Shown: positions 46,251-61,420, counted from the stretch's first letter. The stretch is 64,000 nt of DNA from Candidatus Saliniplasma sp. (GCA_046497075.1 JAWOGF010000059.1:3040-67039), one strand, 5' to 3'. Program-made: numbers and translations. The notes: generated from the sequence alone by a model not told the origin.

Positions 46251-47570
46251 GTGAGTAAAATGAATGAAGAAAATGAACTCGCGCCCCATATTGAAGATAT
46301 AACCCGGGCGCTGAACGAAAAAGTAAGTAAGGAACAGATCGAAGAGGAACTCCACAACTATATCGATATCTATGGAGTCCCTTTGGGAACCGCAAAAAGA
46401 GCAATCGTAAAAAAACATGAGGGAGATCCTCAGAAGCTATTCAATAGCACTGAGAAGAGGATCGAAGAGATAGAAGGTGAAGAAAGATCACTTAACCTCA
46501 AAGCTAGGATCGTTTCTATAAATGATAAAGAGATAGAAGTAGATAACGAACCTAAGAATATACAGTACGGTATCCTAGGCGACGAAACGGGCACGGTGCC
46601 CTTCACTGCTTGGGAGAAATTACCTATAGATGTAGAAAAAGGTGATACTGTAGGCATACAGAACGCTTATGCAAACATGTGGAACGACAAACCTCAGATA
46701 AACATAGGAACGAAAAGTACAGTCAAGCACTTAGACGATGAAGATGTTCCTCGATTCGAACAGGAAATACAACCCTGTGAATTGAAGGATATAAGAGAAG
46801 GGATGAGGAACTTAAGCGTGACTGGAAGATTGCTGTCTGTAGATAAAAAAACGGTCAACACAAAAAACGGTGAAAAGGAACTTTTCTCTGGAGTGATCTC
46901 TGACGAAACAGGTAAAGCCCAATTCAGTGCATGGCACGATTTTGGATTGGATGTAGGTGATGTAGTCCGGATAGAAGGAGGATATGTTCGCTCTTGGAGA
47001 GGTATCCCACAGCTTAGTTTTGATGATAACGCTGATGTTGAGTTTTTAGAAGATGACGTACTCCCTCAGGCTCAAGACCTTCAGGAAATAAATGTCATCT
47101 CCATCTCAGAATTAGCCAAACGTGGTGGGGCAGTCGATGCGGTTATCGATGCGGTTATGATCGATATAAAGAGCGGCAGCGGCCTGATATTCAGATGCCC
47201 TGAGTGCAGTAGAGTGATCCAGAAAGGTGCATGTAGAGTTCACGGCAAGGTCGATGGTGAAGCGGATCTAAGAATCAAAGGTATATTAGACGATGGAACC
47301 GGAGCATTGACAGTAATAGCGAACAGCGAACTTACGGAAGAAGTACTGGGTTACAACATGGAAGAAGCCATGGACATCGCAAGAGACAACATGAACCAGG
47401 ATGTCATCAAAGATGAGATCGAAGAAAAGCTGATCGCTCAACCGGTTAAGGCTACTGGAAACGTAACTAGTGATGATTATGGTTTGATGCTGATCGCTAA
47501 TGATCTCAGCACGAAAACCGTAGATGTTGAGGAAGAAGCTAGAAAACTACTTGACGAGGTGAGAGTGTGA
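46251..47570 (+). CDS. rpa: Replication protein A (RPA) large subunit-like ssDNA-binding protein with OB folds and a zinc ribbon
   Basis: Several OB-fold-like segments are present (LKARIVSI...GDETGTV, VTGRLLSV...SDETGKA). The zinc ribbon is CPECSRVIQKGACRVHG. Confidence 0.75.
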   Translation: MSKMNEENELAPHIEDITRALNEKVSKEQIEEELHNYIDIYGVPLGTAKRAIVKKHEGDPQKLFNSTEKRIEEIEGEERSLNLKARIVSINDKEIEVDNEPKNIQYGILGDETGTVPFTAWEKLPIDVEKGDTVGIQNAYANMWNDKPQINIGTKSTVKHLDDEDVPRFEQEIQPCELKDIREGMRNLSVTGRLLSVDKKTVNTKNGEKELFSGVISDETGKAQFSAWHDFGLDVGDVVRIEGGYVRSWRGIPQLSFDDNADVEFLEDDVLPQAQDLQEINVISISELAKRGGAVDAVIDAVMIDIKSGSGLIFRCPECSRVIQKGACRVHGKVDGEADLRIKGILDDGTGALTVIANSELTEEVLGYNMEEAMDIARDNMNQDVIKDEIEEKLIAQPVKATGNVTSDDYGLMLIANDLSTKTVDVEEEARKLLDEVRV

Positions 47571-55981: not shown

Positions 55982-56448
55982 ACCATTCTCTATACATCTC
56001 AGGTTGACTATCACTTACTATTTTCCATCTACCAGTATAAGAATCGTACTTAAATTCTCATTTTATAACAACTAGAGTTTTCTTCAGAACAGTTTCATTT
56101 CCGCCTTGGGTCCAACTTTGATATGAGAATGTAATCTTTTATATCCCCCTTCTAAAGGACATCTCTCTATATCAGAACCACCATATGACTGACTCTCTCT
56201 TACAACCTAACCTCTAACCTTTACATTGATCCCATCATACCACTCTAGATTCTCTAGTAAAGAAGATATTTAGGTATAGCTGTAATACGCTTTCTCTTCC
56301 AACTCTATTCCATAGGACTCTTCTATCTACAAACTATACTTATCTTCATATTCCTCAACAATACATCTAGCAGTGATCACGGCCCCCGGTTTGATCTCTC
56401 CTTTCGTATCTAAATTCTCCAATCGCTCTTTATTTATTTTCACCTGCA

Positions 56449-56754
56449 GTGAATTATTCACCCTCAGACCTTTCACATGAAGGCAAACTAGCTATCGAAC
56501 AAGGCTACAGCCATCGCTGTCCCTATAGCATCCATAATCAGCAGAGGGTGTCTAACCTGATAACGGATATCGATGACGAAAGAATAAGTTACAAAGCGAT
56601 AGCGATAGACTATAGGGAAGAAGCTCTAAAATACACTATCGAACCTTTGAACTGGGAGTGGCTTTACATCAGCGGTAGGGAAATAGAATATTTCTTCAAA
56701 TCTAAGGAAGAACTCGAAGAAGAGATAAAAAGCATGTTAGACGATTTAGGTTGA
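56449..56754 (+). pseudogene. Stand-alone copy of the C-terminal RCPYSI domain (truncated paralog of 55094..55981, possible gene remnant)
   Basis: The alignment is by eye. DLSDEGKLKIVSTYSNRCPYSIYNG...IDDDRIEF aligns with DLSHEGKLAIEQGYSHRCPYSIHNQ...IDDERISY. About 470 nt of upstream non-coding DNA is present. Confidence 0.35.
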
Positions 56755-56757
56755 TCT

Positions 56758-57447
56758 TCAATGATCTTCTGGACTGCTTTCAGTCGTTATACACCATCTT
56801 CCCCTATATGAGTCATATCCAAAGTTGCCTCTGACCACTATAACACTGCCTTTAGATATAGAATAATTCTCAGTAAAATCCCAATCTTCGATTCTGATCA
56901 TAAGTTCACAATCCATTCCATCAAGGGGCTCAAGTTCTAGGATAGTATCATCTGCTATTATTTGTAAGGAGAGGATCTCACCTCTAATTTTATGATTCAT
57001 GCCCTCATGCCATTCTGGGTTATCCAACAGTTCGCCAGGAGAGGTAAAGCTTGAATAGGCTGCGTTTTCGATCCTAAAATCTCCTGCTCTAGAGACAATG
57101 ATGGATATATCTTCTTCATACATGTCGACCTCCCCTCTAGCAGTTATCTCAGTACCAGTTCTTACCTCTTCTAGATCACTAACATATGAAAGAACCCTTT
57201 TTTCTACCAATGCTGTGACAGAAGAGTTCCCTTTGTCTTCTTTCAGCTCCATAATATAACTGTCCTCTAGCGTGATGAGGTTAGAAATAAAACCTCTAGT
57301 TTCAACATGAGCCCCTACCAAATTTTCATCGATCTCGGATATCTCAATCTTCTCAGCATCTTGGCTAGCCGAGTATAAAAATAAAAAACTAGTTCCGATC
57401 AGAGAAATTATTACGGAGATAGTTAGAAGCTTTTTTTCATCGATCAC
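56758..57447 (-). CDS. Signal-anchored hypothetical protein (two beta-rich domains)
   Basis: There is an N-terminal transmembrane or signal segment. Its start lies 4 nt after the orc1/cdc6 stop. Confidence 0.4.
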   Translation of the reverse strand: MIDEKKLLTISVIISLIGTSFLFLYSASQDAEKIEISEIDENLVGAHVETRGFISNLITLEDSYIMELKEDKGNSSVTALVEKRVLSYVSDLEEVRTGTEITARGEVDMYEEDISIIVSRAGDFRIENAAYSSFTSPGELLDNPEWHEGMNHKIRGEILSLQIIADDTILELEPLDGMDCELMIRIEDWDFTENYSISKGSVIVVRGNFGYDSYRGRWCITTESSPEDH

Positions 57448-57451
57448 CAGA

Positions 57452-58615
57452 TCAACCCTCGAGCATCGACTCTATCTTTTTTTCTAGTACCTCTGCGGGA
57501 ATGTCCGATACGGTTATCTTTGTAGTTCGTCCGGTCCCGGTGGACACAGTTTTCGTATCTAGTAAACCTTCTTCAGACAGTGATTTTATATATTTCCAAA
57601 ACTGAGTGTGACCTAGTGTATCCATACCGTATCCTTCGGTAGCAACTTTATATTGCTCTTCCAATTTACCGGTGGTGGTGTATGCTTTGTTTTTCAACTG
57701 ACGAGCGGTAGCTAAGAGTATGATCCTTTCCTGCTCGTTCAAAGATCTGATCCGATTTTCGGTGAAATAGGGGTCAACTTCTGCTTTGGAGTGCCTGATC
57801 TCCTCCGCATCGATCTTATCGTCTCCCTTTTCCTCTGTTAGAAGTGCTGACTTCTCCATGAGTTCTATACCTAGTCTAGCGTCCCCTCTTTTTGCAGCTA
57901 TATCTGCTAGTAGTTTTAATTCTTCTTCACCTATCGAATCTGGATATAATGCCAGTCTCCTACGCTGTTCCAGGATATCATATAACTCGTCAGGTCCATA
58001 TTTGGGGAATTTTATCCGGTTCCCTCTTTTAAAAGAACTCAGTGCCCCTTCCTCTAGAAACTCAAGAGCGTTCTTCTGTGAGATCAAAATGAGCGATACA
58101 CTTCCTTTAGGCGTAAAACTTTCGTCATCGAATCTAGAGAACAGATATATGAGTTCAGATCCTTCTTTCTTAATGAGGGCATCCACCTCGTCCAATATGA
58201 TTATAAGATGCATACCTCTATCTTTGATGTGTTTACTCAGTATCTCCATCATCTCGCCAACCGAGAATCCTCTATCTGGAAAACCTTTATCGAAATTAGA
58301 TATTATCTTCCACATAACTTGGCCATTGTTGTTACTCCTTCTACAGTTCACGAAGACGTAATCTAAGTTTTTCCCCTCCTCAGAAGCCCATTCTTTGAAG
58401 TTCATACTGAATCTTTTTACTGTGGCGGTTTTCCCTGTCCCGACACTCCCGTGTAAGAAAACATTTTGAGATACATCTGAGTCTACTACGCCTTTGAATA
58501 GAGTGAACAGCCTTTGAATCTGTTCATCCCTATTCGGTAGTTCTTTTGGAACGTAATCGAAAGATAGTTTTTTGTGGTCTTTTATTATCTTTGCTTTTGT
58601 TCTTTTGAATGCCAT
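57452..58615 (-). CDS. orc1: Orc1/Cdc6 replication initiator
   Basis: DYVPKELPNRDEQIQRL is present. The AAA+ Walker A is LHGSVGTGKTATVK. The Walker B is IIILDEVD. The sensor motif GDARLGIEL is present. The C-terminal winged helix contains GRTTKI. Confidence 0.85.
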   Translation of the reverse strand: MAFKRTKAKIIKDHKKLSFDYVPKELPNRDEQIQRLFTLFKGVVDSDVSQNVFLHGSVGTGKTATVKRFSMNFKEWASEEGKNLDYVFVNCRRSNNNGQVMWKIISNFDKGFPDRGFSVGEMMEILSKHIKDRGMHLIIILDEVDALIKKEGSELIYLFSRFDDESFTPKGSVSLILISQKNALEFLEEGALSSFKRGNRIKFPKYGPDELYDILEQRRRLALYPDSIGEEELKLLADIAAKRGDARLGIELMEKSALLTEEKGDDKIDAEEIRHSKAEVDPYFTENRIRSLNEQERIILLATARQLKNKAYTTTGKLEEQYKVATEGYGMDTLGHTQFWKYIKSLSEEGLLDTKTVSTGTGRTTKITVSDIPAEVLEKKIESMLEG

Positions 58616-58639
58616 TAGTATCGAAATCTCTTTCTGTAA

Positions 58640-59776
58640 TTAAAGGTCCGCCCCGCAACTTCTACATTTATCCGCATCGGGGTCATTCAACTCCTCACAG
58701 ATAGGACATATAAGTTTTTTCTCATCCGTTTCTTCCATTTCATCGCTTTCAAATTCATCCTCTTCTTCGCTGTCCTGTTCTTCCTCCTCAATTTCTTCTG
58801 GTTCCTCTTCCTCAGTTTCTTCTAGTTCTTCCTCCTCAGTTTCTTCTAGTTCTTCCTCCTCAGTTTCTTCTAGTTCCTCTTCCTCGGTTTCTTCTAGTTC
58901 CTCCTCCTCTGATTCCTCCTCCCATTCTTCCTCGGTTTCTTCTAGTTCCTCCTCCTCTTCTTTAATCTTCTCATCGGATCTTGGCATAACAGAATCTGTG
59001 ATAGTGACACTCTTCCCAGCTTCCAAGTCACCTGAATATTCTACACTACCTTCGACCTTGACGCCCTCCTCTAACCTAACATTACCTAGGACTGAAAGAT
59101 CACAAACTTGAGAATTTCTAGCGATATTTACATCTCCATCGCTTTCTATGTCTCCAGTAGAAACCTCTTCGGAGAGGCTTATATCCCTACCTGTTATCAT
59201 CCCTCCTATCTTGGACGATTTACCTATATTGATATTTCCGGTTTTAGAATCGATATCACCTTCCACTGTTGTATTTTTTCCGATCTCTATATCCCCCTCA
59301 GCTTCGATAGACCCATGGATCTTGACCGAGTCCTCAAATGATAAATTACCTTTCGATTTTATATCACCATTTATTACGGTATTGGACTTGAAGAACAAGT
59401 CTTCCCCTGACTCTACAGCAGGTTCCTCAAGGGCTCCGCTATATCCTTCCATTTCTTCCATCAATCTTTTATTTTCCTCGTCTAACTCCTGTACCTCTTT
59501 TCTGAGCTCTTCATTTTCTTCTTCGAGTTCAGCTAACAATGTTCTTTCCTCTTCACTAAAATGACCTAGATCTCCACTTTCGTCGAGTTTATAAAGTAAT
59601 TCTTGTATCCGCTGCTCCTTTTCTTCGATAGTCTCTCTTTTTTCATGGAGGAGTTTTCTTTTCTCTTTCTCTAATGAGTCTACTTGTTTGGTAAGTCTTT
59701 TTAACTCATTCTTTAGTTTAACTACCCTTTTTTTGTATTCTTCCATGCGCTTCCTTATCTGGTTTTTGCTGACCAT
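58640..59776 (-). CDS. Coiled-coil plus bactofilin-like beta-helix repeat protein with acidic repeats and a C-terminal zinc ribbon
   Basis: The N-terminal roughly 120 aa are heptad-rich (KLKNELKRLTKQVDSLEKEKRKL...). The central G-x-I/V repeat region (GDIKSKGNLSFEDSVKIHGSIEAEGDIEIGKNTTVEGDID...) resembles a bactofilin/DUF583 beta-helix. An EELEETEE tract repeated 5 times follows. The C-terminus has CPICEELNDPDADKCRSCGADL. Confidence 0.55.
   Translation of the reverse strand: MVSKNQIRKRMEEYKKRVVKLKNELKRLTKQVDSLEKEKRKLLHEKRETIEEKEQRIQELLYKLDESGDLGHFSEEERTLLAELEEENEELRKEVQELDEENKRLMEEMEGYSGALEEPAVESGEDLFFKSNTVINGDIKSKGNLSFEDSVKIHGSIEAEGDIEIGKNTTVEGDIDSKTGNINIGKSSKIGGMITGRDISLSEEVSTGDIESDGDVNIARNSQVCDLSVLGNVRLEEGVKVEGSVEYSGDLEAGKSVTITDSVMPRSDEKIKEEEEELEETEEEWEEESEEEELEETEEEELEETEEEELEETEEEELEETEEEEPEEIEEEEQDSEEEDEFESDEMEETDEKKLICPICEELNDPDADKCRSCGADL
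58795..58950. repeat. In-frame 24-nt tandem repeat (about 5 copies) encoding EELEETEE
   Basis: The unit ttcttctagttcttcctcctcagt is directly visible in the sequence. Confidence 0.8.
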
Positions 59777-59814
59777 GATTACCCCTCATCTGTAAAATAA
59801 AAAAAGGACGGAGA

Positions 59815-60480
59815 TTATTTATCGTTTTCTATTTCAGATTCTATACCCCAACCCTTTCTCTCCATATTTTTGACCACCCCATCGACCCTTTCAACCTCTA
59901 TCACCGCTAGGCAGTCACCTTTTTTAGATAATCTTATCAGATTCTTAGCGATGATGTCTTCTCTATGTTCTTCCAGTTTTTGAAACCCTTTGAGTTTATT
60001 GATAGCTTTATCCCATTCTTTTACAAAATCTCTAGGATCATCATTAGGGAAGGTCTTCTTTTTTAATCTTTTTTCTCTTATCGATTGTAATATCCATTGA
60101 GTCCCTGTCACATGATCACAATAAGCCATTGTATAATGTTCTTCATCCATATCGAGAGCGAACAATTTTATATCATTATCCTGACAGTATTTAAGGAAGG
60201 CTACGAAAGATGGTGGAGGAAGGCTCACTTCGCCGAATTCACTGAGTTTTTCTGCGTAGATCTTTTCAGGTCTATTCGGTTCGATGGATATATCGAGTTC
60301 CTTATCTATCATATCCCTGAGTCCTTTAAGTTCTTTTTCAGATATAGCCAATGCGCCTACGTCGAAACCTACGCTTTTCAGTTGGGACACGGTCCGGTCC
60401 ACCTCGGGATTTAGACCTTTAACAACATCTATGATGTAAACATAAGTACCGCCCTTTCTTAAAACGAACAAATCAATCAC
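59815..60480 (-). CDS. Hypothetical protein, possibly TraB/GumN-family-like
   Basis: GTYVYIIDVVKG...DVGALAISE weakly resembles the TraB N-terminal pattern. The assignment is tentative. Confidence 0.3.
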   Translation of the reverse strand: MIDLFVLRKGGTYVYIIDVVKGLNPEVDRTVSQLKSVGFDVGALAISEKELKGLRDMIDKELDISIEPNRPEKIYAEKLSEFGEVSLPPPSFVAFLKYCQDNDIKLFALDMDEEHYTMAYCDHVTGTQWILQSIREKRLKKKTFPNDDPRDFVKEWDKAINKLKGFQKLEEHREDIIAKNLIRLSKKGDCLAVIEVERVDGVVKNMERKGWGIESEIENDK

Positions 60481-61420
60481 CCTTTCTTTCCCTGAGAAGA
60501 TCCGTGATATCTTGTTTAGAATTTATCGAACTGAGTTCGGAAATATCGATTATGGGTATGCCTTCTAGATTCACTCTAGTAACCCGTTTTTTAAGAAATA
60601 TCACTGAATCTCGCTCCGTTATATGTGAGATATCTGAAACAATCTTAGCTTTCTTTTTGATCTCAGGATTTTCTTCAGATCCAACACCCGTTAAAAGTAC
60701 ATCCTTTTCATCCTCGGTGATTGCTTCAAAGGGACATTTCCAGGTAGGAACTATACGATATCCGATAGAGGTAAGATATTCAAAGATGTCTTTATCGAAC
60801 CCACTCATATCTTCAGGGAACTCCTTTGTATATTCACTTTCATCCGACCTATCTAGAGGGTTTAGAGGCAATATGAGATCCTCACCGAGGAATTCTTGAA
60901 GTTTTAAGGCCACTTCTAGATCGGCACCCATCCCTTTCTCATATTTCTGTATAGCTTTCCGGGAAACGCCTCCGATATCCGCTAACCTGCTCAAAGAAAC
61001 ATTCCTATCCTTTCTAGCTTTTTTTATGAGATCTGAATCTATCTTAACATAGAAGCCGCCAGGTGCCGAAAAAACATAGGGTGGAACCCCTTCGATGAAC
61101 ATATCATAAAGCGTATCTAAAGAGAGAAGAGGAACCCCCTGTCTAGAATAGATTACCCCTCTTTCCAAAGATCTATTACCGCCTTTCTCCGCGACGAATA
61201 AAGGAGACCCCTCTAAAACATCGCTCAATATCTTGATCTCCTTGGCATTACGTATCCTAGAACTGTCAGCATTAAGGGATACACCTATTATCAAGAGTTC
61301 ATCGTCCTTACGAGCTATGATATCAAAACTGATGTTTCTATCAAAATGCCTTTCAGAAAGGTAGAATCCAGCCTTTGCCAATATATCTCTGACATTTTCG
61401 ATCAACTGGAGTCGTTTCAT
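60473..61420 (-). CDS. Predicted transcriptional regulator with C-terminal XRE-type HTH (archaeal COG1395-like)
   Basis: The HTH is NVSLSRLADIGGVSRKAIQKYEKG. The N-terminal domain resembles the conserved archaeal regulator family. Confidence 0.5.
   Translation of the reverse strand: MKRLQLIENVRDILAKAGFYLSERHFDRNISFDIIARKDDELLIIGVSLNADSSRIRNAKEIKILSDVLEGSPLFVAEKGGNRSLERGVIYSRQGVPLLSLDTLYDMFIEGVPPYVFSAPGGFYVKIDSDLIKKARKDRNVSLSRLADIGGVSRKAIQKYEKGMGADLEVALKLQEFLGEDLILPLNPLDRSDESEYTKEFPEDMSGFDKDIFEYLTSIGYRIVPTWKCPFEAITEDEKDVLLTGVGSEENPEIKKKAKIVSDISHITERDSVIFLKKRVTRVNLEGIPIIDISELSSINSKQDITDLLRERKGD

Follow-up and report, generated by a model that had tools for sequence, protein, structure and literature searches.

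Does an archaeal orc1/cdc6 gene with no ORB-type origin beside it, packed between the genes for a bactofilin-like protein and a membrane protein, encode an initiator whose activity is physically coupled to a filament or the cell envelope? This was the proposal of an initial annotation of a locus in Candidatus Saliniplasma sp. The window analyzed here is the whole 64,000-nucleotide stretch of DNA that contains the locus. The answer depends on the paralog class of the Orc1 protein, the identity of its two neighbors, and how far their association extends in related genomes.

Organization of the orc1 locus

The three minus-strand ORFs encoding Bac378 (378 residues), Orc1 (387 residues), and OB229 (229 residues) were recovered at the coordinates originally assigned to them (Table 1), as were the gaps of 24 bp between Bac378 and orc1 and 4 bp between orc1 and OB229. 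Their description as a three-gene operon is correct in the tight, co-directional spacing, but the run consists of five genes, with HTH315 and p221 upstream of Bac378. The HTH315/p221 gap is −8 bp and the p221/Bac378 gap is 38 bp. HTH315 matches NCBIfam PRK04140 (307.6 bits, cut-off 263) and Pfam HTH_3 (39.7 bits), and its orthologs carry the PDDEXK_19 and HTH_3 domains and occupy the same position in all relatives. Searches of Pfam, NCBIfam, and PDB sequences returned no match to p221, and an alignment of 12 orthologs contains 53 invariant columns that include DMD..HY..AYC.HV.G. The OB229 remnant downstream of the cluster appeared as two tblastn HSPs with 31–34% identity in different frames on contigs L001 and L002 that were mapped to the window, and its strand has no ORF of ≥60 aa there. 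A separate, cytoplasmic RPA-like gene (46251–47570) and an SMC gene are located in the same window.

Table 1. Coordinates of the features of the orc1 locus within the window.
Feature	Coordinates	Strand	Basis
HTH315, transcriptional regulator that combines a PD-(D/E)XK-like N-terminal domain with HTH_3; heads the co-directional run	60473..61420	-	Profile matches
p221, conserved protein of 221 aa without a known family; 8-bp overlap with the HTH315 stop	59815..60480	-	Ortholog alignment
38-bp spacer 5' of the Bac gene, with T-rich tract and Shine-Dalgarno-like GAGGGG	59777..59814	-	Sequence reading
Bac378, coiled-coil / bactofilin-like β-solenoid / acidic linker / zinc-ribbon protein, 378 aa	58640..59776	-	Profiles and AlphaFold
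Bac378 residues 1–112, antiparallel helical hairpin, coiled-coil-like	59441..59776	-	AlphaFold helices 2–66 and 75–112, pLDDT about 90
Bac378 residues 121–265, right-handed triangular β-solenoid, about 8 windings of about 18 residues	58982..59416	-	AlphaFold
Bac378 residues 266–353, poly-acidic linker	58718..58981	-	Repeat finding (TRF), ortholog comparison
Bac378 residues 354–378, CPxC...CxxCGA zinc ribbon	58643..58717	-	Invariant cysteines, Foldseek
Orc1/Cdc6 AAA+ protein, 387 aa, probably Cdc6/Orc1-2 (P. aerophilum Cdc6-like) class	57452..58615	-	Profiles, tree, identity
Orc1 winged-helix DNA-binding domain, residues 284–387, with HTQFWKYI...TGTGRTTKITV	57455..57766	-	Motif comparison
OB229, single N-terminal membrane helix (residues 4–28; 57364–57438) then two OB folds, 229 aa	56758..57447	-	AlphaFold, Foldseek
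Frameshifted OB229 remnant (copy of residues 74–227), directly downstream of the cluster	55998..56458	-	tblastn

Short gaps alone are not proof of an operon in archaea. Bac378, orc1, and OB229 combine a common strand and short gaps with a conserved order, which makes them a candidate operon. A TATA-like GATAAATAA is located ~42 nt upstream of the Bac378 ATG, where it overlaps the p221 stop codon; the spacer was read in the window sequence and in an alignment of 10 relatives. The corresponding region in contig L010 is a true intergenic space of 143 bp that follows an opposite-strand gene and retains TTAAATAATA, and the element is a putative promoter. Another TATA-like sequence, TTTAATTA, precedes the orc1 ATG by 22–29 bp, and the orc1 gene has no Shine-Dalgarno sequence. 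The two elements would be compatible with one transcript or with separate transcripts.

Orc1 most likely belongs to the Orc1-2 class

Orc1 matches TIGR02928 with 268.6 bits (cut-off 181.3), Cdc6_lid with 65.9 bits, and Cdc6_C with 65.4 bits. The Walker A (GSVGTGKT, residues 56–63) and Walker B (IIILDE, residues 138–143) motifs are both intact. The initial label of a canonical Orc1/Cdc6 is therefore accurate for family membership, but the winged helix appears to be of the Orc1-2 class. Its motif resembles those of P. aerophilum Cdc6 (HSQLWSYL...GRTTLISI) and A. pernix ORC2 (YTQYHIYL...GRTTLFRL). An Orc1-1 type winged helix was considered and rejected; the RGRYGKTKEI wing is absent and the window protein has TGTGRTT. 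Winged-helix identity is 38.5% to P. aerophilum Cdc6 and 31.9% to A. pernix ORC2, compared to 22–24% for S. solfataricus Orc1-1 and A. pernix ORC1.

Class membership was assessed by neighbor joining and quartet bootstrap against four references, all of which are crenarchaeal. The tree places all of the Thermoplasmata Orc1 sequences with P. aerophilum Cdc6, and with these four crenarchaeal references the Orc1-2 grouping was recovered in 134/200 quartet bootstraps for the whole protein and in 164/200 for the winged helix. The AAA+ part is equally close to both classes (98 versus 97 bootstraps), and the best whole-protein PDB match is S. solfataricus Orc1-1 at 154 bits versus 147 for P. aerophilum Cdc6. 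The sequence comparisons thus give moderate support to the window Orc1 being a Cdc6/Orc1-2-class paralog, which is the most likely assignment.

The window protein shares its arrangement of AAA+, lid, and winged-helix domains with the Cdc6/Orc1-2 class, represented by P. aerophilum Cdc6 (1FNN), A. pernix ORC2 (1W5S), S. islandicus Orc1-2, T. acidophilum Ta0451m, and the Methanomassiliicoccales cdc6.2. The GRTT wing and the H(T/S)Q.W.Y type of helix are common to both; the AAA+ module of the window protein is no closer to this class than to Orc1-1. The Orc1-2 of Thermoplasmatales branches near Crenarchaeota (PMC3914693), and of the two T. acidophilum Cdc6 proteins, one resembles 1FNN and the other 2QBY (PMC2627522).

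Few genes of the neighborhood are as well conserved as orc1, which has 82–86% identity compared to 60–72% for most flanking genes, and the HTH regulator is the sole neighbor that matches it (82–90%). In contrast, the cdc6.2 of Methanomassiliicoccales is described by Borrel et al. as fast-evolving and in a non-conserved context (PMC4153887), whereas the window orc1 is well conserved and so is its context. An initiator role for the window Orc1 is conceivable because it evolves slowly and because Orc1-2 is the only Orc1 kept by Thermoproteales (PMC3914693).

ORB elements are absent from the orc1 locus

The ORB core TTCCASTGGAAA with ≤2 mismatches has 22 scattered matches in the window compared to 14.6 ± 4.9 expected, and the core plus G-string has none. 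There are no repeats in the intergenic spaces flanking the cluster, and the core plus G-string is found beside orc1 in 0 of 45 loci, which include Methanomassiliicoccales relatives of the window Orc1. No second orc1 or ORB was seen within the 64-kb window. The largest intergenic spaces nearby are accounted for by the RNase P RNA and the pseudogene remnant.

These searches agree with the original observation that ORB-like repeats are lacking near orc1. The premise attached to it, an origin-proximal initiator with a missing origin, is not supported in view of the winged helix, which falls closer to P. aerophilum Cdc6 and A. pernix ORC2 than to Orc1-1 proteins. Origins coincide with Orc1-1 and not with Orc1-2 in H. 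volcanii and S. solfataricus (PMC3914693), and ORBs flank cdc6.1 and are not found at cdc6.2 in Methanomassiliicoccales (PMC4153887). Since the window Orc1 resembles a paralog class that is published as lying away from origins, paralogy probably accounts for the apparent lack of an origin at an initiator gene, and the missing origin is expected rather than surprising.

Bac378 is a bactofilin-like solenoid with a zinc-ribbon tail

The AlphaFold model of Bac378 has a mean pLDDT of 81, which exceeds 90 in the solenoid; its acidic linker is predicted to be helical and to lead to a zinc ribbon at the C terminus. The heptad-like charged sequence of the hairpin is retained in orthologs and in the wider family. 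The proposed resemblance of the central repeats to bactofilins is supported by both profile and fold. Pfam Bactofilin (PF04519) scores 35 bits (cut-off 27.9, E = 1.8e-8) over two stretches, and Pfam FapA scores higher at 45.6 bits (cut-off 31). The EELEETEE tract was confirmed as a 24-nt tandem repeat of 7.5 copies (58777–58957; TRF) that is expanded only in the Saliniplasma window genome; linker length and sequence vary among orthologs. The reported CxxC...CxxC ribbon is also present, as CPIC at residue 357 and CRSC at residue 371, both of which are invariant in orthologs. Zn_ribbon_3 scores 20.7 bits, below its cut-off, and other zinc-ribbon profile matches are weak as well; Foldseek aligns the ribbon with RanBP2/NZF-type zinc fingers at a probability of 1.0 and a TM score of up to 0.87 over 25 residues.

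The Bac378 model shares the right-handed triangular β-helix and hydrophobic core of bactofilins (PF04519/DUF583) and superimposes on T. thermophilus TtBac (1.7 Å, 87/89 residues) and C. crescentus BacA (2.8 Å). Bactofilins have 6 windings of about 17 residues (10.1101/617639) versus about 8 of about 18 in Bac378. They have short disordered tails that bind membranes at the N terminus, whereas Bac378 has a 110-residue helical hairpin instead, and the long acidic linker and zinc ribbon (helix-hairpin-helix, HhH, in paralogs) belong to Bac378. FapA/DUF342 (PF03961) aligns residues 138–353, the solenoid and following helix, with profile positions 8–233 of 272. Its N-terminal domain is absent from Bac378 in a Pfam scan at E ≤ 0.1, and the coiled-coil hairpin takes its place. 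FapA/DUF342 is a bacterial family, we know of no link between it and Orc1, and it is not the top solenoid family of the Bac orthologs and paralogs, which match Bactofilin. The architecture of the archaeal halofilins HalA and HalB is not that of Bac378. Two proteins with two solenoids and a membrane segment (P0004 and P0005) are only distant matches.

An exhaustive HMMER search (1.84 billion sequences) returned only 368 representatives with E ≤ 1e-3, of which 37 reached E ≤ 1e-10, and about 14 of these 37 have the coiled-coil plus solenoid core. The core is followed by HhH in seven homologs and by a C-terminal zinc ribbon in three. HHH_5 scores 40–48 bits (cut-off 27) in all four HhH-tailed paralogs scanned with Pfam; one HhH-tailed paralog, P0026, comes from the assembly that contains L009, where it is on a different contig. 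Family members score 19–37 bits against the Bactofilin profile, on either side of the 27.9 cut-off. Bac378 belongs to a small, rare archaeal family that is apparently undescribed to date. The tail that follows the core is a zinc ribbon in some members and a DNA-binding HhH domain in others, so a scaffold associated with DNA or chromatin is the most likely role of the family, and by analogy to these paralogs the zinc-ribbon tail of Bac378 may bind DNA. Archaeal bactofilin-domain proteins are known (10.1101/617639; PMC11459167) and polymerization of archaeal bactofilins was unverified according to Deng et al. (10.1101/617639). Bactofilins are characterized by nucleotide-independent polymerization into non-polar filaments. 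Bac378 may self-assemble, and the modeled solenoid could stack end to end into filaments.

OB229 is a membrane-anchored tandem OB-fold protein

The third protein had been called signal-anchored and β-rich, and the AlphaFold model (pLDDT 81) refines this description to a membrane helix followed by two OB folds. Consecutive OB folds are also found in RPA70 DBD-A/B, POT1, and Teb1-AB, which match with a Foldseek probability of 1.0 and E values from 1.9e-9 (Teb1-AB) to 1e-5; HIN domains are matched as well. Identity to RPA70, POT1, and Teb1 is just 9–15%, and OB229 differs from them by its N-terminal membrane anchor, probably facing outward. The Pfam OB profile scores 21.3 bits, below its cut-off of 27, and exceeds it in the L016 homolog (32.9). 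The model points to a ssDNA-binder-like protein. The positive-inside rule, a simple charge rule, predicts an N-in/C-out topology with the OB domains outside the cell, and this location would argue against a replisome role.

Conservation of the neighborhood

The nearest genomes to the window are those of Saliniplasma and soda-lake Thermoplasmata MAGs, and OB229 shows 100% identity to a Candidatus Saliniplasma sp. protein encoded on a 74-kb contig. The order Ca. Halarchaeoplasmatales and its salt-in strategy have been described (PMC11332174). The HTH-p221-Bac-Orc1-OB unit is found in ~14 related contigs (L003, L005–L011, L033–L036, L045–L048) and is retained even where identity has dropped to 55% in Orc1, 36% in Bac, and 30% in OB. 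Gaps in relatives range from 10–68 bp for Bac/orc1 and 1–28 bp for orc1/OB. The opposite-strand gene in L010 separates p221 from Bac and thereby defines Bac-Orc1-OB as the core. Upstream rearrangements in L009, L010, and L033 have left the cluster together; in L035 that flank is changed only in part.

The wider neighborhood (methyltransferase, AlaX, p295, RNase P RNA, Kae1, malic enzyme, and RPA) is also collinear in relatives, and conservation of the trio may therefore partly reflect relatedness rather than selection. The neighbors are conserved beside orc1 in relatives, but the Bac-Orc1 adjacency is confined to one order-level clade. Outside this clade, Bac homologs with the same architecture have radical SAM, MscS, and tRNA splicing endonuclease genes as neighbors, and a NIF3-like gene precedes orc1 in place of Bac in more distant relatives. 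More distant Thermoplasmata have a homolog of OB229 located 0.6–1.6 kb downstream of orc1, and the OB-orc1 linkage reaches Methanomassiliicoccales-like MAGs at 47% Orc1 identity. No description of the Bac-Orc1-OB arrangement was found in the searchable literature, nor of any Orc1-2 whose gene is clustered in a conserved manner with those for a solenoid scaffold and a membrane OB protein, which agrees with the initial view that the arrangement had not been described.

Discussion

The reading that best accommodates these data, with a probability of about one-half, is that the locus is a lineage-specific conserved neighborhood of haloalkaliphilic Thermoplasmata (Ca. Halarchaeoplasmatales) that groups an Orc1-2-class orc1 with a DNA-associated scaffold and a membrane OB protein, and is not an initiator with a lost origin. 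An unlikely but still sizable alternative is that three to five unrelated housekeeping genes, possibly with their own promoters, are together only because the genomes are compact and closely related. Collinearity of the wider region, the different neighbors of Bac homologs elsewhere, and the NIF3-like gene before orc1 in distant relatives fit coincidental synteny, and TTTAATTA together with the missing Shine-Dalgarno sequence would be compatible with a separate leaderless orc1 transcript. A coincidence accounts poorly for a cluster that outlasts upstream rearrangements and the L010 insertion, for gaps that stay short where identity has fallen to 36% in Bac and 30% in OB, and for the OB-orc1 link that extends to Methanomassiliicoccales-like MAGs; the DNA-binding tails of the Bac family would also suit a DNA-related partner.

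Two functional couplings are both improbable. The Orc1-2 ATP switch might regulate transcription and division in a DNA-damage, DNA-exchange, or cell-cycle checkpoint module, with Bac as a cytoskeletal or chromatin effector and outward-facing OB229 binding extracellular or translocating ssDNA. S. islandicus Orc1-2 is a non-initiator that acts as a global DNA-damage regulator and also inhibits cell division (PMC9738581; PMC6061795), and the Orc1-2-class winged helix, the predicted topology with tandem OB folds outside, and the PD-(D/E)XK+HTH regulator at the head of the run are consistent with such a module. The whole basis is, however, an analogy with a crenarchaeon and a topology from a charge rule, the cluster contains no DNA-import or repair genes, and TaCdc6-1 is abundantly expressed in exponentially growing T. 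acidophilum (PMC2627522). At least as improbable is an initiator whose co-expressed polymer-forming and membrane proteins tether origin firing, or the newly replicated origin, to a filament or envelope, with an unconventional origin or one without recognizable ORBs in or beside the cluster. Tight spacing, conserved order, the slow evolution and intact Walker motifs of Orc1, the ssDNA-binder type of the OB229 fold, the HhH tails of scaffold paralogs, and the RPA-like and SMC genes in the same 64 kb would agree with tethering. A bacterial precedent for a solenoid polymer that positions DNA-binding machinery is the M. xanthus BacNOP-PadC-ParABS system, in which bactofilins organize chromosome segregation, as cited in PMC11459167. 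There, an adaptor links bactofilin to the ParA segregation ATPase and not to a replication-initiator homolog, and the M. xanthus bactofilins have neither coiled-coil nor zinc-ribbon fusions and are homologous to Bac378 in the solenoid only. Neither the window nor its relatives have ORBs or a repeat cluster in or beside the locus, and the large intergenic spaces have other occupants. The Orc1-2-type winged helix, clade-limited adjacency, possible separate orc1 promoter, and predicted outward OB domains mean that a physical tie between replication initiation and an envelope or filament is speculation rather than a finding.

If the locus is a conserved Orc1-2 neighborhood, orc1 would be a 1FNN-like paralog and the counterpart of T. 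acidophilum TaCdc6-1 and the Methanomassiliicoccales cdc6.2. This class appears to lie off ORB-type origins in every archaeon examined, so an Orc1-1-class gene with ORBs would be expected elsewhere in the genome. Bac378 would be a cytoplasmic scaffold, with the helical hairpin probably serving in dimerization or bundling and an acidic disordered or helical spacer leading to the small zinc ribbon. The link of membrane-anchored OB229 to orc1 would predate the bactofilin link. If the three proteins do cooperate, their likeliest common theme would be DNA-state sensing or cell-cycle control, rather than origin firing, by an ATP-switch Orc1-2-type DNA binder and a DNA-bound scaffold.

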